A DNA stretch of 6,069 nt from a virus, in IMG/VR virus record IMGVR_UViG_3300045988_012314, positions 1-6,069 of that record; one strand, 5' to 3'. Shown here in pieces: positions 1-6,069 of this stretch (position 1 is the first letter of the stretch; every line of letters begins with the position of its first letter). The translations under genes and the position numbers were made by a program. The notes beneath the pieces were generated by a model. The model saw only the letters and a program-made list of their open reading frames with translations, made no database searches and was not told the origin of the DNA.

Positions 1-77
1 TTTGTTCCTAGTACGTATACAATTCCTTTTTCGATTTTGTCTAGGAATAGTTTTTCACGTTCTTCTTCTGTAAATAG
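1..77. repeat. Terminal direct repeat, copy 1 (identical to 5993..6069); marks circular closure, unit length 5,992 nt
   Basis: Base-by-base comparison shows tttgttcctagtacgtatacaattcctttttcgattttgtctaggaatagtttttcacgttcttcttctgtaaatag at both ends of the window. The reading frame of the Rep gene is continuous across the implied junction. Confidence 0.95.
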
Positions 78-773
78 TTTGTTTCTGTAATAAATTGGTA
101 GGTTGAGTTTTCCTCCGTTTCTCATTCGGTATGATTCGTTTGTTTCGCCTGGTATATATACATGTCTTTTGGCATCCTCTCGCTTGAGGTATCCTGCTCC
201 TATTCCTGCCGAACAAAGCACCTTTCCTCTGAATTTTGGGTGCTTTTCGTCAATTTTTAACATGTATTTTGTAATGTAGTTTATAGTTTTTTCATTCACA
301 AAATATCCGGTGAATGTGATTCCGTATTTCCAATTGTCCGTTACTTTCTTTCCATTTCCCAAGCCCCAAACTATTCCATGGAGATGCAATCTTTCTGTTT
401 TCTCGTGTCCGAGTTCTGTAATAAACCAGTGCTTTACGGATTTTCCGGTTAACTTTCGTACTCTTTCTAAGCATAGTCTTATAGCTTTTGTTGCAATATC
501 GTTATTATCTTTTAATTTGTATTTTTGTTTCAGTTGTTTGTATGATTTATCGTCGATTGTCAGTGTTAGAAAGTAGGCGTTTGGCGTTTGTCTGTTTTCT
601 TCTGACATTCTTACCACCCATTGTCTTTGCTTTTGTTTCCTGCATTCATAGCAGTCCCCGCATGCTGCTGTTACATAACGTAGTCTTTCATCAGGGCAAA
701 CAGGCGGTACCCCGCCGTTTTTCTTTGTTGGTAGGTACCGCTTATTTGGTATGAGTTTCGGATATAGACACAT
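1..773 (-). CDS. VP4: Replication initiation protein VP4/Rep (HUH-type rolling-circle endonuclease), N-terminal 257 codons plus 2 nt; continues across the circular junction into 5992..5728
   Basis: Manual translation of the - strand. The ATG is at 773..771, 4 nt after the VP2 stop, and the frame stays open to position 1, which is why it is absent from the ORF track. The protein begins MCLYPKLIPNKRYLPTKKNGGVPPVCPDERLRYVTAACGDCYECRKQKQRQWVVRMSEENRQTPNAYFLTLTIDD. It continues ...HWFITELGHEKTERLHLHGIVWGL...NEKTINYITKYMLKIDEKHPKF.... This gives the Cys cluster CGDCYEC, motif 1 YFLTLT, the His motif HLHGIVW and the Tyr motif YITKYMLK, as expected for microvirus VP4/A-type initiators. Confidence 0.93.
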   Translation of the reverse strand, partial: MCLYPKLIPNKRYLPTKKNGGVPPVCPDERLRYVTAACGDCYECRKQKQRQWVVRMSEENRQTPNAYFLTLTIDDKSYKQLKQKYKLKDNNDIATKAIRLCLERVRKLTGKSVKHWFITELGHEKTERLHLHGIVWGLGNGKKVTDNWKYGITFTGYFVNEKTINYITKYMLKIDEKHPKFRGKVLCSAGIGAGYLKREDAKRHVYIPGETNESYRMRNGGKLNLPIYYRNKLFTEEEREKLFLDKIEKGIVYVLGT

Positions 774-777
774 ATTA

Positions 778-1812
778 TTAAAGTCCTGTTTTTCCTACTT
801 TTGCTCCTAGTGCTGCCCCTGCTCCTTTCGAAGCTATTTCGAGCATTCCAAGTACAATGTCTTTGATGAGCTTTTGCTCTTCAATATTCAGACCTTTTTT
901 GCCTAAGTCGTATCTATTGAATACATCTTGTGCATAGGCTTCCATTTGTTCTTTTTGGATGATTAATGCCTTTCCTTTTTTGGTAAGCTCTTCCCATCCT
1001 TGTAGAATTTGTGCTGGAATTGCTTTTGCTTGCTCTTCATTGACTTTTCTCTGGCTTCCTTTGAGTAATATTTCACTCATCAGATTTTGAAGTGTTAGAG
1101 AGGATTCTTTCACTTTATTGTCAATTGTTCTTTCTTTTAACTCGTTGTCGAGTTTCATCCCGTTGATTTCTTCAGCTAGTTTATCAATTCCCTTTTGTAG
1201 GCTCTTGATGTTCCAGCGTGTTTCATCGGCTTTGTCTTTTGTCCAATCTGCCATGTTTCGTTTAAGTTCCTCTTCTGCATCTGCTACTCTGATTTGTCCT
1301 AAGATGAGCCCTTTCTTCGCTTTTTCGTTTGAAGTTTGCGCTATCAGGTTATCTATGGTAGCTTCTTGTGTTCTGGTGTCTACACCGCTTATTTTTTCGG
1401 CTTCGGCTTTATTCTTCTCTGCTTGGCTTTCGTTAAGTCTTGTTTGACTCATTACGTTTGCCAATTGTAGAGCCATTCCTTGCGCTTGGAGTCCTATTTC
1501 TGTTCCTGTTTTGCTAGGTTGTCCTACTCCGCTAGCTTGTCCTGCTCCGCTCGTGCTTCCGCCTGCTCCACCTTGTCCGTATATGAGACCAGGGCTTAGC
1601 CCTGCGCCTTTTATATGTCTCATAGTGTTTTCGTAATTGGTGTAATTCCATAAATCCCTTGCCAATCCTGTGGAATAAAACGCTTGTTGTTTATTTAGCT
1701 CCGCTTGGTGCTCCATCAATTGTTTGTTCTCTTCAAATTGGTCTTTTTTCGCCTGATTTCCCATTATTCCTTTGGCAATTCCGGCTCCTATACCCATTAT
1801 TGCTCCTAGCAT
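778..1812 (-). CDS. VP2: DNA pilot / minor capsid protein VP2 (344 aa)
   Basis: Listed ORF with an ATG start and TAA stop. It has a Gly-rich hydrophobic N-terminus (MLGAIMGIGAGIAKGIMG). The segment NYTNYENTMRHIKGAGLSPGLIYGQGGAGG resembles the conserved NT..QR...D.K.AGLNP.L block of microvirus VP2/H-type pilot proteins. A long Lys/Glu-rich, coiled-coil-like central region follows. The gene sits directly upstream of Rep. Confidence 0.85.
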   Translation of the reverse strand: MLGAIMGIGAGIAKGIMGNQAKKDQFEENKQLMEHQAELNKQQAFYSTGLARDLWNYTNYENTMRHIKGAGLSPGLIYGQGGAGGSTSGAGQASGVGQPSKTGTEIGLQAQGMALQLANVMSQTRLNESQAEKNKAEAEKISGVDTRTQEATIDNLIAQTSNEKAKKGLILGQIRVADAEEELKRNMADWTKDKADETRWNIKSLQKGIDKLAEEINGMKLDNELKERTIDNKVKESSLTLQNLMSEILLKGSQRKVNEEQAKAIPAQILQGWEELTKKGKALIIQKEQMEAYAQDVFNRYDLGKKGLNIEEQKLIKDIVLGMLEIASKGAGAALGAKVGKTGL

Positions 1813-1829
1813 AATTATTTACATTTTCG

Positions 1830-1849
1830 CGCTTTCATGTCTGAAAGCG
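1830..1849. repeat. Inverted repeat / hairpin CGCTTTCA-TGTC-TGAAAGCG (8-bp stem, 4-nt loop), 17 nt upstream of the VP2 start
   Basis: Perfect complementarity read directly from the sequence. No U/T tract follows it on the - strand. Confidence 0.7.
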
Positions 1850-1899
1850 ATATTCATATTACTTGATAATAAATTGTAGGTGCGTACTTCCGTGTATTT

Positions 1900-1917
1900 T
1901 CCGGTAATTAAACCGGA
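1900..1917. repeat. Inverted repeat / hairpin TCCGGT-AATTAA-ACCGGA (6-bp stem)
   Basis: Perfect complementarity. A third CCGG-containing palindrome, CTCCGGAG, lies at 1924..1931, so CCGGA (1913..1917) could alternatively pair with TCCGG (1925..1929). Confidence 0.6.
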
Positions 1918-1950
1918 CAAATACTCCGGAGTGCTTGTTACCTACAAGGC

Positions 1951-1970
1951 TTTGAAGATACCTCTTCAAA
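1951..1970. repeat. Inverted repeat / hairpin TTTGAAGA-TACC-TCTTCAAA (8-bp stem, 4-nt loop), starting 4 nt after the stop of the 105-aa ORF
   Basis: Perfect complementarity. Its position just 3' of a stop codon on the - strand suggests a transcript 3'-end or attenuator hairpin, but no U tract follows. A further 5-bp hairpin, CTTGT-TACCT-ACAAG, lies at 1934..1948. Confidence 0.6.
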
Positions 1971-1974
1971 CAGT

Positions 1975-2292
1975 TTAGTTTTCAGAGGGAGAGCCTCCCG
2001 GTATTTTATCAGGTACATTTCCAAAATCTTCAGGTTTTGGAGCTGTTTCTTTCTTTGCTGAAGCTCTTGTGATTTTATCGTAGGCGTCCATAGCTATATC
2101 AAACCTGTCTGTTCGTATATTGTACGCTGGTAGTACACCGTCTTCTTTTGCTGTATAGATAATTGGTGCTGTATCTGTAATTGGTTCTTTGTCTTGAAGG
2201 ATTCTTGCGCATTTTGTTTCAATGCTTTCACCTTCGTAGATTTCTATTGATTTTAATCTACCGTTATTTTTTGATGGAAATGAGTATTTCAT
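1975..2292 (-). CDS. Hypothetical protein, 105 aa from ATG 2292 (118 aa if the GTG at 2331 inside the VP1 3' end is used); function unassigned
   Basis: The listed ORF 1975..2331 begins with GTG (cac at 2329..2331) and would overlap VP1. The first ATG, at 2292..2290, lies 13 nt after the VP1 TAA and gives MKYSFPSKNNGRLKSIEIYEGE...PIIYTAKEDGVLPAYNIRTDRFDIAMDAYDKI.... It is co-oriented and tightly packed with its neighbours. I cannot confirm a family. A scaffolding role is only a positional guess. Confidence 0.6.
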   Translation of the reverse strand: MKYSFPSKNNGRLKSIEIYEGESIETKCARILQDKEPITDTAPIIYTAKEDGVLPAYNIRTDRFDIAMDAYDKITRASAKKETAPKPEDFGNVPDKIPGGSPSEN

Positions 2293-2305
2293 AATGTTAT
2301 AATTT

Positions 2306-4240
2306 TTATAAGTTAGGAATTTGTTTTGCACTAATTAGACGTCTTACTCTGATGTCAAATTTTGTTTGCACCCAAAAGTTCATAGCGTCTAGGTTTGTAT
2401 CTGCAAAGATGTAATTGAATTTTATTGGGTCTATATAAGTTGTTAAATCTTCAATCTGTTTGTTTGGACTGATTGAATAGTTACGATTGAGCACCATAAA
2501 GCTTTCACTCATTCCAGGCGCGAAATTTCCGAACGTCCTATTTACATTTGTCATGTAGTTAATCCAAGCTACTGTCTTACCTGCGGATGTACGTTTTAAG
2601 CCTGGGTCTGTTGTAAAGTAGTCTGCCCACCATGCACGTTCACCGTTTAATGAGTCTTGGTATCCGATTCCGTCTAGTGCTGGTTTGTGCCAATCATCCA
2701 TTGTTTCTAGGTATGTATCCCAGGTATTTCCCTGTCCATAGTCGATTCGTGGAGTGATTGAACAGATACACATAATATAACATGGTTCTGTTACTTTGAT
2801 ACGGATATGTCCGCCTTTTTGGCGTTCTGTTGTTACTCCTCGTCCGGCTAGTGTTCCTAGTGGTTCGTCTCCGGATGCGCTGTTGCTTACTACTTCTTGA
2901 AATACAATTTCTTGGCTTACACCACCTTCGAAGGTTGGTGTTTCGCATCTCTCCATGTAGTTACCTCCAGTGTATACTGTTTCTAGCCAATCTCGGTAAG
3001 TTCCTCCTGAAATTGCGATTCTATTGAGGAAGTTGTATACCTTCTGCGACAGGTTTAAGGCGTCCATTGATAGCGTACCGTCTGATACGTCTACGGCACT
3101 TGCTTCGTTAATTCCGTTTACGCCCTCTATCCACTCCGTGTTTATCCAATTTTGATACAAATCACTGTTGTAAGTTTTTAGGCATAATCCGTATTGTGGG
3201 TCCGTTGAGTTTAGTTTGTTGTTTACGGCTTTTCTTTTTACAAAGTTAGTGAACGGCGCTATACTCATTGATGTTTTTGATATATCAAATACAACATCTC
3301 CTGCCGTTAATAGTATTTTATCTCTGATTGTGTCTAGGTTTTCTAGTGGATAACTTTCTAGTGTTGTTCTGTTTATTGTTTGTACACTTCGAATATACCA
3401 TGTTTCCCCTTCTGGGACATTTTTCGTTGTTATTGTTATTAATTCTCCTGATATTTTCCATGTTCCTATATCTCCTGGTGCAAGTATTACACTTTGTCCT
3501 GTTGGTGAATTTTTTGCTACTTTGATTTGTAGCTCGTTTTGTTTTATTGTATTTGGACTTAATGCTATCAGTCCTGTGTTGTTAATTCTCCCTTCATTAC
3601 TTGGAATTGCATTCGGATTTACCCTTTTTCCGTTGATTGTTACTATTATTTCTTCAGTATTTCCGATAATATAAAAGTTTTCTTCCTGCGTGTTGGCGTA
3701 GTAGTTTTTAAAGATGTCATAGTATGCTAGTATTGGTACTGCGTTTTTGAATATGCTTTTTGTGTCTGGTTTGGTTATGTTCGCATAACCTCTTATTCCT
3801 AGGTATGCAAGTAAACAACTTGGATTTACTTGACTCCATTGCTCCTCCTCTGTTGTTGTAGCGTCGTAATTGCCGTTTAGTATTAAGCCTATTTGTGGTA
3901 ATTTTACTTTTGCCATATTCAGACCGATTTTTGTTCGGTTGTTATGTAGCCAACTGTTATACAATCTTACAGGTGCCGCATAGATGTGATGCTCTAGTTT
4001 GAATGACCCGAATAAAGGCCCTGTTGTTGGATGAGTAAGTACGTTTGCTTCTATATCGATGTCAAATGTATCACCTTTTTGCCCTACTAAGCATAGGTTT
4101 GGTACTAATGTTCCAGGACTTTGCGTATTTCTTACAATGGTTGATAAGTCATGAGTTGACATGTTATACTCATGCAGGCTTACTGACATTTTATTATTGT
4201 CACCAATGGTATTTTTACCGATATTCTTTTGAATTGACAT
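2306..4240 (-). CDS. VP1: Major capsid protein VP1 (phage F-type jelly-roll capsid protein), 644 aa
   Basis: Listed ORF with an ATG start and TAA stop. The N-terminal block HDLSTIVRNTQSPGTLVPNLCLVGQKGDTFDIDIEANVLTHPTTGPLFGSFKLEHHIYAAPVRLYNSWLHNN follows the conserved microvirus capsid pattern (DLS...G.L.P.....PGDTF......R..TP..P......L....FFVP.RL.W). The C-terminal ...FNYIFADTNLDAMNFWVQTKFDIRVRRLISAKQIP is also typical of the family. An AAGGAG sequence lies about 9 nt upstream of the ATG. Confidence 0.95.
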   Translation of the reverse strand: MSIQKNIGKNTIGDNNKMSVSLHEYNMSTHDLSTIVRNTQSPGTLVPNLCLVGQKGDTFDIDIEANVLTHPTTGPLFGSFKLEHHIYAAPVRLYNSWLHNNRTKIGLNMAKVKLPQIGLILNGNYDATTTEEEQWSQVNPSCLLAYLGIRGYANITKPDTKSIFKNAVPILAYYDIFKNYYANTQEENFYIIGNTEEIIVTINGKRVNPNAIPSNEGRINNTGLIALSPNTIKQNELQIKVAKNSPTGQSVILAPGDIGTWKISGELITITTKNVPEGETWYIRSVQTINRTTLESYPLENLDTIRDKILLTAGDVVFDISKTSMSIAPFTNFVKRKAVNNKLNSTDPQYGLCLKTYNSDLYQNWINTEWIEGVNGINEASAVDVSDGTLSMDALNLSQKVYNFLNRIAISGGTYRDWLETVYTGGNYMERCETPTFEGGVSQEIVFQEVVSNSASGDEPLGTLAGRGVTTERQKGGHIRIKVTEPCYIMCICSITPRIDYGQGNTWDTYLETMDDWHKPALDGIGYQDSLNGERAWWADYFTTDPGLKRTSAGKTVAWINYMTNVNRTFGNFAPGMSESFMVLNRNYSISPNKQIEDLTTYIDPIKFNYIFADTNLDAMNFWVQTKFDIRVRRLISAKQIPNL

Positions 4241-4243
4241 AAT

Positions 4244-4516
4244 TTATTTCTCCTTTTTGTTTTCGTTAGTATTCTTTGTTTTTTTTGCAGTTCGTTTTAG
4301 TTTCTTCTCATATTCATCTGCTTCCTTACATGCATAGATCATTGCGGAAATCAGATTCCAGTCTATGGAGTTGATTCTTTTTTCTGCTGCTTCACGCGTT
4401 GGAAATTTTTCATTTGTTGCCAAATGTTTGCCAATTACAATCATGTATTCTTTCTCTTCTTGAGTTGTTGGTAATACCTTGAATACATCTTTCATGTCGT
4501 TAAATTCTCTTTCCAT
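4244..4516 (-). CDS. Hypothetical protein, 90 aa, with a Lys-rich C-terminal tail (KKLKRTAKKTKNTNENKKEK)
   Basis: Listed ORF with ATG at 4516, starting 2 nt after the upstream stop and ending 3 nt before the VP1 ATG. The basic tail is compatible with nucleic-acid binding, like the small basic DNA-packaging proteins of other microviruses, but that is inference only. Confidence 0.55.
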   Translation of the reverse strand: MEREFNDMKDVFKVLPTTQEEKEYMIVIGKHLATNEKFPTREAAEKRINSIDWNLISAMIYACKEADEYEKKLKRTAKKTKNTNENKKEK

Positions 4517-4518
4517 TT

Positions 4519-4725
4519 TTAATAGTTTTTAGGATTGATACTAATTTTTGTACTATCAACGCTTGACGTCGATGTTTGTTCGGTCTTTTGCGTTGAGTTT
4601 TGATTGTTTTTGCTTACGGATAGACTCATTGTACACGACTGCACACATAAGGTCGTAATTATAGCTATGATCGCCGTACTGATAGCTCGGATAATTTCTG
4701 TCCATTGATTACCTGTAATTTTCAT
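4519..4725 (-). CDS. Small membrane-anchored or lipoprotein-like protein, 68 aa
   Basis: Listed ORF whose ATG follows the upstream TAA by 1 nt (TAA-C-ATG). It has a short charged N-region (MKITGNQWTEIIR), then a hydrophobic stretch AISTAIIAIITTL, then Cys residues (TTLC, VQSC). The tail is Ser/Thr/Asn/Gln-rich and looks disordered. Confidence 0.6.
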   Translation of the reverse strand: MKITGNQWTEIIRAISTAIIAIITTLCVQSCTMSLSVSKNNQNSTQKTEQTSTSSVDSTKISINPKNY

Positions 4726-4726
4726 G

Positions 4727-4981
4727 TTAGAATAATTTTAATTGTTTTTGTTTCCAAATTTTTGTATCTTGTTCATCTTTGTCAAAAGTTTTTTCGCATA
4801 TTAACCTCCTTTCTTGTTTTGTGAAGATATACTTTTTTGTAATAACATCTTCATCTAGTTCATAACATATTTTCTTCATTTTTATTGATGTGTTGAAGTA
4901 CACGTAATTTTTTAGCTCCTGAAATGTATTGAAAATATATCCGTCTGCTTCATATTTTCTAATCTTTTTCGGTTTTTTCAT
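4727..4981 (-). CDS. Hypothetical protein, 84 aa
   Basis: Listed ORF with an ATG start that overlaps the upstream ORF by 23 nt. It is co-oriented within the tightly packed small-gene block. I recognise no motif. Confidence 0.5.
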   Translation of the reverse strand: MKKPKKIRKYEADGYIFNTFQELKNYVYFNTSIKMKKICYELDEDVITKKYIFTKQERRLICEKTFDKDEQDTKIWKQKQLKLF

Positions 4982-5162
4982 TTTCGTTAGGATATAATTT
5001 CCATGATTCTACTACTGCTATTATACGCTCGTCTTTTGGTACGACTGCCTTTGCAATTGTTACCGCTATTTTGTATGTACATTCTGTTGGTATTTCTTTT
5101 ACCATTACATGAAACGTAGGATTATCTCCTGTTGTGATTACTGAAAATTTTGTTGCTGCCAT
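4959..5162 (-). CDS. Hypothetical protein, 67 aa
   Basis: Listed ORF with an ATG start and TAG stop. It starts 36 nt downstream of the stop codon of the 49-aa ORF. I recognise no motif. Confidence 0.5.
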   Translation of the reverse strand: MAATKFSVITTGDNPTFHVMVKEIPTECTYKIAVTIAKAVVPKDERIIAVVESWKLYPNENEKTEKD

Positions 5163-5191
5163 AGTTTTGTAATTTTTTAAGTTAATATTAT

Positions 5192-5208
5192 GGAGGCTTT
5201 AAGCCTCC
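5192..5208. repeat. Palindrome / hairpin GGAGGC-TTTAA-GCCTCC (6-7 bp stem) overlapping the stop codon of the 49-aa ORF
   Basis: Perfect inverted repeat read directly. On the - strand the TAA stop (5199..5201) sits in the loop. The sequence after the hairpin is A-rich rather than U-rich on the - strand, so this is not a canonical intrinsic terminator. Confidence 0.7.
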
Positions 5209-5209
5209 G
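5197..5209. repeat. 13-nt direct repeat CTTTAAGCCTCCG, copy 1 (copy 2 at 5456..5468)
   Basis: Exact match read from the sequence. This copy forms the right half of the 5192..5208 palindrome. Confidence 0.8.
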
Positions 5210-5348
5210 ATATTGATTTAATGTATTCTCCTTTTTTTAGAAGTAATTTTGCATATTTAATAGCATCATTGAAACTTCCTTTTTTTACAAACGTTGAATT
5301 TTCTTTAGTCTCTTTGTTTCTGATAGTGATAATGTAGATAGTTTTCAT
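5199..5348 (-). CDS. Unlisted small ORF, 49 aa (MKTIYIITIRNKETKENSTFVKKGSFNDAIKYAKLLLKKGEYIKSISEA)
   Basis: Found by manual translation and absent from the ORF track, presumably because of a length cutoff. It runs from ATG 5348..5346 to TAA 5201..5199. AAGGAGGT lies 4 nt upstream of the ATG, the strongest ribosome-binding site I found in the genome. A promoter-like match lies about 30-60 nt upstream. Confidence 0.6.
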   Translation of the reverse strand: MKTIYIITIRNKETKENSTFVKKGSFNDAIKYAKLLLKKGEYIKSISEA

Positions 5349-5352
5349 ATTG

Positions 5353-5360
5353 ACCTCCTT
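5353..5360 (-). promoter_or_regulatory. Shine-Dalgarno sequence AAGGAGGT for the 49-aa ORF
   Basis: The + strand acctcctt at 5353..5360 is AAGGAGGT on the - strand, followed by the spacer CAAT and then ATG. Confidence 0.6.
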
Positions 5361-5376
5361 GTTTTTTATTACACTA

Positions 5377-5408
5377 CAAATATACGTGTTTTTTTTGATT
5401 CCTGCAAA
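5377..5408 (-). promoter_or_regulatory. Candidate promoter for the small-gene block. Bacteroides-type: -33 TTTG (5408..5405) and -7 TATATTTG (5384..5377). It can also be read as a sigma70-like TTGCAG-N17-TATATT.
   Basis: The - strand reads AATTTGCAGGAATCAAAAAAAACACGTATATTTGTAG. TATATTTG fits the published Bacteroides consensus TAnnTTTG exactly, and TTTG lies 20 nt upstream. The site is in a 25% G+C stretch, so AT-rich matches arise easily by chance. Confidence 0.4.
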
Positions 5409-5455
5409 TTTTCTGATATTTATCTGAAGCTTTTAACTTTTATTAGCAATAGTAT

Positions 5456-5468
5456 CTTTAAGCCTCCG
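5456..5468. repeat. 13-nt direct repeat CTTTAAGCCTCCG, copy 2
   Basis: Exact match to 5197..5209. It sits at the boundary between the GC-rich structured block and the AT-rich promoter region. Confidence 0.8.
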
Positions 5469-5727
5469 TGGCGTTTGAACGGTGATGGAGCAATAGAGGG
5501 CGCATAGCCCTCCTTAGCGACTAGCACCTTGATATCGACGAAGTCGCACACCACGACCTTTGGTCGGGTGCATGTCACTCCTTATCCCGTTCTTAAGGTA
5601 GCCGCCTCTCGGATAAAGGCATATCTCACCCTCCCGTTATACACCCTTGGCCGCCCGGCCTAGAGGTGTTAAATACAGACCCGTGTGATGTTAACACGGT
5701 ACCCGTTGGATATGCCCGAGCACAGCC
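5456..5727 (-). other. GC-rich, non-coding, highly self-complementary element (candidate structured ncRNA, Rep 3'-UTR structure, or ssDNA complementary-strand origin); class unknown
   Basis: By my count 5461..5730 has 148/270 G+C (55%), against 25% for 5341..5460 and 30% for 5731..5790. Stop codons occur in all - strand frames, and the longest ATG ORF is 15 codons. There are at least eight nested helices, with coordinates given in the findings. The strand assignment is tentative. It rests on three G-T pairs that exist only when the - strand is folded. Confidence 0.55.
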
Positions 5728-6069
5728 TTATGTGTAATACTGGTTATAATATAGATTGGCGAATGTATCAATGTCTTTATTAAACTGCTCTTGTTCTCTT
5801 TCCTCTTTTTTTCTTTCCTTCTCGGCGACCATAGTCGCTTTAGATTCCATCCACTGACGTTGTTTTTTGAGCCTGTTAAGGTATTTTCTTTCTTCCCATT
5901 CTTTGGGATTGTCGTAATACAGTCTTTCACAGCGTTCTCGTTCGCTTACGAGTACACCCATATATCGTGATTCTTCGGTCTTTAGGTCTATTTTTGTTCC
6001 TAGTACGTATACAATTCCTTTTTCGATTTTGTCTAGGAATAGTTTTTCACGTTCTTCTTCTGTAAATAG
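5728..6069 (-). CDS. VP4: Replication initiation protein VP4/Rep, C-terminal part (5993..6069 duplicates 1..77); stop TAA at 5730..5728
   Basis: The listed 77-aa ORF 5728..5961 is in frame with the ORF leaving the window at position 1. The nucleotide index of 5961 within the gene is 773+(5992-5961)+1 = 805, which is the first base of codon 269. The junction reads ...GIVYVLGTKIDLKTEESRYMGVLVSERER.... The total is 773+265 = 1,038 nt, or 345 aa plus stop. The C-terminal tail is Lys/Glu-rich. Confidence 0.92.
   Translation of the reverse strand, partial: LFTEEEREKLFLDKIEKGIVYVLGTKIDLKTEESRYMGVLVSERERCERLYYDNPKEWEERKYLNRLKKQRQWMESKATMVAEKERKKEEREQEQFNKDIDTFANLYYNQYYT
5993..6069. repeat. Terminal direct repeat, copy 2 (identical to 1..77)
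   Basis: See copy 1. Confidence 0.95.

Follow-up and report, generated by a model that had tools for sequence, protein, structure and literature searches.

A strand-specific, GC-rich multi-hairpin cassette of gut microviruses as a candidate rolling-circle replication origin

In rolling-circle replicons, the nick site of the replication initiator protein (Rep) determines which strand is displaced. In phage φX174, the viral-strand origin nicked by the gene A protein at CAACTTG↓ATATTAATAAC (the arrow marks the cut) is 30 nt long, lies inside gene A without flanking hairpins and is conserved among close relatives; the rep_origin is annotated at A4306, in CAACTTG↓ATATT. The complementary-strand sites of phages G4 and φX174, which are separate from the Rep nick site, act on the packaged strand and are recognized by host priming proteins. 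Single-strand origins of rolling-circle replication (RCR) plasmids, of the ssoA and ssoU types, are non-coding regions of 150-300 nt with extensive intrastrand pairing that act on one strand and in a fixed orientation; they depend on host enzymes, hence are independent of Rep, and are exchanged between replicons as cassettes (PMC5703833). No description of cis-acting replication signals in gokusho- or alpa-like microviruses, of a gokushovirus origin or of a microvirus structured RNA was found in the literature. In the present work, a GC-rich non-coding element was characterized at positions 5456-5727 of a 6,069-nt stretch of viral DNA (IMG/VR record IMGVR_UViG_3300045988_012314, positions 1 to 6,069; hereafter the window, with the strand as given called +). 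With bases 1..77 occurring again at 5993..6069, the window holds a single microvirus genome, a circle of 5,992 nt whose genes are all on the - strand. We propose that the element is a cassette-like origin of rolling-circle replication that is strand-specific and works on the + strand, which is T-rich and antisense to the genes of the window; a probability of roughly 0.55 was assigned to this reading.

Parts of the element were detected by blastn in 27 GenBank phage records of otherwise dissimilar microviruses, and a scan of IMG/VR with its most conserved 15-mer, filtered with an nhmmer profile, yielded 53 viral copies on contigs of ~6 kb, to which a metagenome scan added 113 further contigs, nearly all of ~6 kb. 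At least 166 distinct element sequences were collected, from gut microviruses of ~6 kb. As members retrieved by exact match to the 15-mer cannot show invariance of the core, relatives picked by their Rep protein alone, with no DNA motif, were used instead, and the element was present in 25 of 26 and in 8 of 8 of these. The 15-mer is not regarded as invariant, since the Rep-selected relatives showed two core alleles. Each genome contained one copy, always in the single large non-coding gap that extends from the last gene to the promoter, and this was observed in both of the gene layouts described below.

The orientation of the element was variable with respect to the genes and constant with respect to base composition. 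Among the 53 genomes of the first sample, 41 carried the element in gene sense, immediately 3' of Rep, and 12 carried it antisense to all genes, usually tail-to-tail with the pilot gene; the antisense layout was also found in 26 of 102 further metagenome contigs, that is, in 38 of 155 genomes overall. At four-fold degenerate sites, the coding strand was A-rich in the 41 gene-sense genomes (A.64, T.14) and T-rich in the 12 antisense genomes (T.69, A.12), and the rule was replicated in the 102 metagenome contigs, with 76 at a skew of +0.60 and 26 at -0.62. The strand reading ...CACCTTGATATC..., which is the + strand of the window, was the T-rich strand in all analyzed genomes of both layouts. 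The orientation of the element is locked to the genome-wide strand asymmetry: the skew keeps its sign with respect to the element and changes it with respect to the genes, which implies that the determinant of the displaced strand travels with the element. Apparent exceptions to the rule were all composite contigs in which microvirus DNA was joined to unrelated DNA; these are probably chimeric assemblies, and could be decayed insertions. In contigs L264, L289, L299, L324, L333, L267, L295 and L310, such joins were located at arbitrary points in VP1, VP2 or Rep.

The gene-sense layout corresponded to a single capsid/Rep clade, so that the layout flip counts as a single event, and the antisense layout spanned at least four deep clades. 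Two pairs of genomes shared the cassette as a whole across layouts: the window and L018, from another clade and with the opposite layout, were 81% identical over 284 nt, and L103 and L008 were 86% identical over 245 nt, in each case as the sole DNA similarity between the two genomes. Both cross-layout pairs obeyed the orientation-skew rule, and these alignments indicate that the cassette is exchanged between unrelated microviruses. ssDNA (single-stranded DNA) phages are T-rich at synonymous sites of the packaged strand (PMC3278643), and the same four-fold-site test on the coding (packaged) strand gave -0.66 for φX174, -0.37 for Chp2 and -0.41 for SpV4. We infer that element-bearing genomes displace and package their T-rich strand, that Rep cuts inside the conserved block of the element and that priming starts at the element. 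One relative without the GC-rich element (L390, IMGVR_UViG_3300017598_000095; Rep 43% identical) had a coding strand with A.73 and T.04. Its sole TAGTATC, at position 2326 of the - strand, which is the T-rich strand, lies in the non-coding gap after Rep and may be a minimal version of the same signal.

The conserved core of the element (Table 1) was the only segment matched in deeply divergent microviruses. Two subtypes, A and B, which differ at the 3' end, were distinguished, and helices were scored within the subtype alignments together with anchored helices, the significance of pairing being obtained from column shuffles of the alignment (n = 1000); RNAalifold applied to a 51-sequence MAFFT alignment of both subtypes recovered fragments only. 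The nine helices listed in a first-pass annotation, made from the sequence alone, were all present in the window, eight of them fully Watson-Crick, while the closing helix of domain 2 comprised 5 of 7 Watson-Crick pairs plus two G.U on the - strand. Across the family, only part of that model was retained: hairpins P6, P7 and P8 showed compensatory changes and pairing that no shuffle equaled, whereas the long-range closing helices and the domain-1 hairpins did not hold. The P7 stem occurred in four variants, all Watson-Crick (CGCC/GGCG, CGAC/GUCG, CGGC/GCCG and CUGC/GCAG); P8 was 93% Watson-Crick in subtype A, with 2-3 pair types per position, and subtype B had a different hairpin at its position. 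This pattern of substitutions argues that the three core hairpins are under selection for pairing. In the mini-hairpin, among 67 subtype-A variants, the pair 5525/5517 was G-C in 61 and A-T in 6, with no exception, and the pair 5524/5518 was C-G in 66 and T-A in 1.

Between P8 and P7 lies a near-invariant, mostly unpaired block, in which 11 of the 16 positions were at least 97% conserved among the same 67 variants; positions 5529, 5531 and 5532 varied in subtype A, and no compensating partner was found for them. On the + strand, CACCTTGATATC and the φX174 origin (CAACTTG↓ATATT) were identical at 10 of 12 bases. The core also contains a short palindrome, GATATC. In a second conserved block, the invariant columns T100, T102, A103, G106 and G108 of alignment A1 correspond to window positions 5641, 5639, 5638, 5635 and 5633, respectively. 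A divergent relative (L009, ON840022.1, positions 2181-2232) kept the flanking hairpin architecture and showed the core GTTCGTAATGGTGCCTAGACGG in place of GTCGATATCAAGGTGCTAGACGC, which may represent a third core allele.

Table 1. Coordinates of the element, its parts and the surrounding genes in the window
Feature	Position	Strand	Description
Whole GC-rich non-coding cassette	5456..5727		54.8% G+C; between Rep stop and promoter region
Conserved core (domain 2)	5452..5590	+	Common to all subtypes
Hairpin P8, GAGGGC GCATA GCCCTC	5496..5512		5' of conserved block on + strand; 0/1000 shuffles
Mini-hairpin GC-GACTA-GC	5517..5525		Pairs 5517-5525 and 5518-5524
Near-invariant, mostly unpaired block CTAGCACCTTGATATC	5521..5536	+	First bases overlap mini-helix; C5536 opens the 5536-5546 stem
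Octamer CTTGATAT	5528-5535	+	Same octamer as across the φX174 nick site
Hairpin P7, CGAC-GAA-GTCG	5536..5546		Directly 3' of conserved block on + strand; 0/1000 shuffles
Hairpin P6, CACC-A-CGACC TTT GGTCG-GGTG	5549..5570		As many as 4 Watson-Crick pair types at a position; both subtypes 0/1000 shuffles
Lineage-specific half (domain 1)	5591..5727		Hairpins 5641-5669 and 5681-5699; closing helix 5618-5625/5709-5716
Second conserved block CCCTCCCGTTATAC (q-sense ..GTATAACGGGAGG..)	5629..5642	+	Invariant alignment-A1 columns
Promoter-like site TTTGCA-18-TATATT	5379..5408	-	Would serve downstream small open reading frames; outside the cassette; keeps gene orientation
Rep	Wraps circle junction; stop codon 5728-5730	-	
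Pilot protein	778..1812	-	
Capsid VP1	2306..4240	-	

The folding of the element was compared with dinucleotide shuffles (n = 200 per test) and was much better than chance on both strands. With RNA parameters, z-scores were -4.39 for the - strand and -3.24 for the + strand, with none of the 200 shuffles as good, and with DNA parameters they were -3.57 (+) and -3.47 (-), with one of 200 as good in each case. The same annotation had favored the - strand on the basis of the G-U pairs gained there, a preference that did not persist in a symmetric comparative test, in which helices were defined by Watson-Crick pairs only and the other sequences were then scored. Subtype A gave 14 G.U (compatible with the - strand) against 15 A.C (compatible with the + strand), and subtype B 20 against 72; if anything, it appears to be the + strand that tolerates wobble. 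An apparent preference for the - strand arose when helices were taken from a fold of that strand, and was discarded as a bias of this choice. The covariation of the hairpins, the lack of an RNA-type wobble preference and the equal significance of the DNA fold on both strands support an origin, and the size, folding and strand specificity of the element match those of RCR single-strand origins (PMC5703833; PMC5714925).

If the element is an origin, an HUH Rep would recognize and nick the unpaired block at or near CTTG↓ATAT, as in φX174, with a putative nick between G5531 and A5532 of the + strand; the invariant TATC adjoining P7 would be an alternative cut site. The corresponding HUH domain (PF23343, REP_ORF2-G2P) was detected in the Reps of the window (E 2e-10), L004 (7e-14) and L002 (2e-17), and the L004 Rep had an additional weak match to Phage_GPA. 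With GC-rich hairpins on either side of the block, P8 on one and P7 and P6 on the other, the multi-hairpin fold would keep the site exposed, and in the released single strand it would act as a host-recognized start of complementary-strand synthesis. Within this reading, the odds that the element contains the Rep nick site are about even, and a function as the complementary-strand origin is somewhat more probable than not; the nick-site and priming roles are not exclusive. Of the options put forward in the first-pass annotation, an ssDNA signal of the origin type came closest to the evidence, with the correction that it would act on the + strand, opposite to the strand chosen there.

The likeness to the φX174 viral-strand origin comprises the 10 of 12 bases with the identical octamer, the location of the motif on the T-rich strand, its single copy per genome and an HUH Rep that is distantly related to the gene A protein. 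Unlike in φX174, the motif, a putative nick site, stands among the hairpins of a GC-rich cassette outside the genes. A second allele of it (TTAGTATC) is found where the Rep is near-identical, and almost unalignable Reps have the motif in common. The intergenic region of the filamentous phages f1 and M13 is likewise a single non-coding region with several hairpins; it gathers every cis-acting replication signal of the phage, with a packaging hairpin and the minus-strand and plus-strand origins next to one another on the packaged strand. In function, it is the nearest analogy to a cassette that would combine nick site and priming; it differs in phage family, in Rep (gpII), in nick sequence and in size (~500 nt vs. 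~270 nt), and no homology is claimed. As in the intergenic hairpin clusters that form the complementary-strand origins of the isometric ssDNA phages (G4 primase site, φX174 PriA site; PMC5714925), several hairpins are grouped outside the genes, a likeness by description only, and here a nick-like motif is embedded between them. The ssoA type is matched by the length (272 nt), the DNA-fold z-scores (-3.57 and -3.47), the covariation of three hairpins and a mini-helix, and an orientation that did not vary with respect to strand skew, taken as a proxy for the displaced strand, in 53 + 102 genomes of both layouts and through at least two transfers of the cassette. A TAGCGA resembling CS-6 (TAGCGT/A) occurs at 5515-5520 of the relevant (+) strand, and the motif was present on that strand in 31 of 52 members; unlike in ssoA, it overlaps the stem and loop of the 2-bp mini-helix rather than occupying a terminal loop. 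The element differs from ssoA and ssoU in the absence of RSB and of sequence homology, and in hosts that are Bacteroidetes-like rather than Firmicutes.

Several observations weigh against an origin, or against the nick site within it. A scan of φX174, φMH2K, Chp2 and SpV4 with the family profile gave no match, and the RSB consensus (TTATGCCGAGAAAATTT) had no match with up to six mismatches on either strand of 5440-5740. The independent support of the orientation rule amounts to one layout flip and at least two cassette transfers. In addition, the cultured gokushovirus φMH2K (L253, a Bdellovibrio phage, AF306496) has an A-rich coding strand (skew +0.31; four-fold sites A.45, T.24, C.25, G.07), so that the equation of T-rich with packaged is not proven for all microviruses: either φMH2K is an exception to the skew rule, or its packaged strand deserves re-examination. 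Both CTTGATA heptamers of φMH2K are on its non-coding strand. Regarding the nick site, in core allele 2 CC(T/A)TAGTATC replaces CCTTGATATC in phages with Reps 92-98% identical to that of the window; T(A)GTAT was read at the nick-like motif in 14 of the 67 subtype-A variants, and the change is an uncompensated GA to AG swap exactly at the proposed scissile bond. The same core, moreover, serves Reps that are barely alignable (28% over 39 amino acids). Two core alleles with near-identical Reps, and one core for unalignable Reps, fit a host-recognized priming signal better than a Rep-specific nick site. In the origins of eukaryotic CRESS-DNA viruses, a conserved nonanucleotide on a GC-rich stem is recognized by very divergent HUH Reps. 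This precedent, like the present element, combines a short near-invariant unpaired motif by a GC-rich stem with divergent HUH Reps and lineage-specific flanks, and means that a core conserved among unalignable Reps does not on its own speak against a nick site; unlike the nonanucleotide, which is in a hairpin loop, the block is a linker between hairpins, and the sequences are unrelated.

Two of the rival explanations place the function of the element in RNA. The strong RNA fold (z = -4.39 on the - strand), the covarying hairpins and the conserved unpaired blocks, typical of functional RNAs, would fit an autonomous structured non-coding RNA of a new class, derived from the element itself or, in the window clade, from the 3' end of the Rep mRNA, with phage or host functions as its targets in cis or in trans. 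Mobility as a cassette and the absence from Rfam would also suit a new RNA class, and since the element takes up most of the gap, its inversion as a block together with a neighboring origin could in principle imitate the orientation rule. Rfam 15, scanned with both strands of the whole window, gave no match at E ≤ 1 and ARAGORN found neither a tRNA nor a tmRNA in the window, in agreement with the earlier remark that no RNA class could be named. However, there was no G.U excess on either strand (the 20 vs. 72 of subtype B follows the direction of mutational bias), the DNA-parameter fold was equally significant on both, 38 of 155 genomes have the element antisense to all their genes and without a recognizable promoter of its own (promoter scan of the window only), and nothing would hold an RNA gene in one orientation with respect to neutral-site skew through a flip and at least two transfers; a new RNA class is therefore considered unlikely. 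Nor does the initial suggestion that the VP2-Rep transcript carries a structured RNA at its 3' end fit the antisense genomes (12/53 and 26/102). An operon-end terminator that also stabilizes the mRNA 3' end would account for a location that is always after the last gene of a transcription unit in both layouts, as GC-rich hairpins work either way round, the complement of a hairpin being a hairpin, and one hairpin followed by a T-run (5699..5681) is terminator-like on the - strand. That hairpin, however, is part of the lineage-specific half and lacks conservation in the family. The conserved part is a mostly unpaired block of ~16 nt, and RNA from the other layout would carry its complement; with ~270 nt and three hairpins that covary, the element is far larger than a terminator, and the orientation-skew rule is left unexplained, all of which makes this function very unlikely.

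The other two rivals concern the DNA itself. One is a signal for packaging or encapsidation that is carried by the packaged single strand, comparable to the packaging hairpin in the intergenic region of filamentous phages and distinct from an origin. Such a signal would likewise be strand-specific, locked to the packaged strand, folded and independent of Rep sequence. It would not set the displaced strand, so that an origin in the same orientation would still be required elsewhere; no other non-coding DNA is conserved between the deep clades. In φX174-type microviruses, packaging is coupled to the displacement of the strand by Rep, and a separate pac hairpin is not known; we regard this signal as quite unlikely. 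The other is a site of recombination or attachment (dif-like or attP), or a piece of host DNA, that would serve insertion into Bacteroidetes chromosomes. In its favor, related microviruses lysogenize Bacteroidetes via dif-like sites without an integrase (PMC3091885); its orientation relative to the genes would be free, and the GATATC palindrome of the core could be taken in its favor. Against it stands a provirus in metagenome contig ODKU01001155.1 (L303, ~4400-9640 of 10369), where a complete L108-type genome, 100% identical over 6,212 nt, is embedded next to a flank encoding a GyrA-like protein of 858 amino acids, which identifies it as integrated into a bacterial chromosome. In this one provirus the element is intact and internal, between phage ORFs (open reading frames), and the nominal provirus ends showed no direct repeat of more than 8 nt. 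The other junctions with foreign DNA were inside VP1, VP2 or Rep and none was in the element, the core lacks an 11-6-11 dif-like dyad by inspection of the sequence, and covarying hairpins are not a feature of dif sites. Among the bacterial and archaeal loci listed as holding the 15-mer, 0 of 120 were members of the family, which weighs against a common host gene, in a survey that was not exhaustive. An attachment site or host fragment, which had been raised in the first-pass annotation, is thus considered barely plausible.

Regarding composition, the G+C content of the element was the highest of any 272-nt window of the genome, the maximum beginning exactly at 5456, which agrees with the GC-rich block originally described; the 25-30% G+C attributed to its neighbors applied to one flank (5200-5455, 25.8%) and not to the Rep side (37.7%), the whole genome being at 37.5%. 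The Rep stop codon was correctly placed, whereas the statement that no ORF exceeds 15 codons does not strictly hold: a 52-codon ORF starting with GTG is present at 5578..5420 on the - strand. It is regarded as non-coding because stops interrupt the frame in relatives. In OP549868.1 (L003, 4566-4808), a GenBank 'hypothetical protein' is annotated over the copy of the element; given the broken frames in relatives, protein annotations over the cassette are probably spurious.

Domain 1 was present in the window, its close relatives and L018, and subtype B had other 5' hairpins there. Several helices of the initial model were not significant across subtype A, namely the domain-2 closing helix (808/1000 shuffles), the GGATAA/TTATCC helix (145/1000) and the domain-1 hairpin 5681-5699 (199/1000), and the outer stem of hairpin 5641-5669 was only marginal (16/1000). 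The 8-bp closing helix of domain 1 was significant (0/1000) but holds only among close relatives, since it was Watson-Crick in just 34% of cells (27% gaps). The long-range pairings GCUACCUU/AAGGUGCU, AGGUAG/CUACCU, ACAGGG/CCCUGU and GACAGG/UUUGUC were rejected as invariant, and thus uninformative, or mutually exclusive, and none is claimed. On the - strand, the hairpin CCGTGT-TAACATC-ACACGG (5699..5681), followed by GTCTGTATTT, lies ~30 nt past the Rep stop with an intrinsic-terminator-like score, and may terminate the Rep transcript in the lineage of the window.

The cassette fills most of the gap between the Rep stop and the promoter-like site at 5408..5379. In L004 (3900-3950), an equivalent TTTG...TAnnTTTG motif was read from the sequence after the element, and the promoters adjoining the element in both layouts (window and L004, also by reading) resemble the Bacteroidetes type (TTTG ... 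TAnnTTTG). These promoters and the GyrA-flanked provirus both point to Bacteroidota hosts for the two layout groups. A genome 93% identical to the window is available from the human gut (GenBank PV067927). An exact 13-nt direct repeat, CTTTAAGCCTCCG, occurs at 5197-5209 and 5456-5468 of the window, with a spacing of 259 nt; the first copy is half of a strong hairpin (5191-5209) that is terminator-like on the + strand, the second coincides with the exact low-coordinate edge of the GC-rich cassette, and the two flank the promoter and the first small ORF. The repeat may be a recombination scar marking the cassette boundary.

The origin reading provides a concrete candidate in which ~140 bases are conserved and which comprises three hairpins, a core with two alleles and a nick position that is putative, and the cassette offers a simple sequence marker for genome polarity. 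Its exchange between unalignable phages would represent modular origin evolution, like that of the leading- and lagging-strand origin cassettes of rolling-circle plasmids, and in practical terms it is a candidate minimal origin for ssDNA replicons of Bacteroidetes. A more tentative proposal, held at somewhat below even odds, is that the orientation of the cassette defines the displaced and packaged strand, so that this portable cassette would set genome polarity and the window clade would consist of 'negative-sense' microviruses, with genes on the strand complementary to the packaged one. We know of no description of such antisense-packaging polarity for Microviridae. The window clade accounts for 41 of 53 and 76 of 102 of the element-bearing genomes sampled, plus the element-less relative L390, and gokusho- and alpa-like microviruses dominate gut ssDNA viromes. 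If the strand inference is true, a large clade of gut microviruses would carry its genes on the non-packaged strand; the orientation and annotation of these genomes would change, and the reading of strand-specific virome libraries, of mutational bias and of codon usage in ssDNA phages would be affected.

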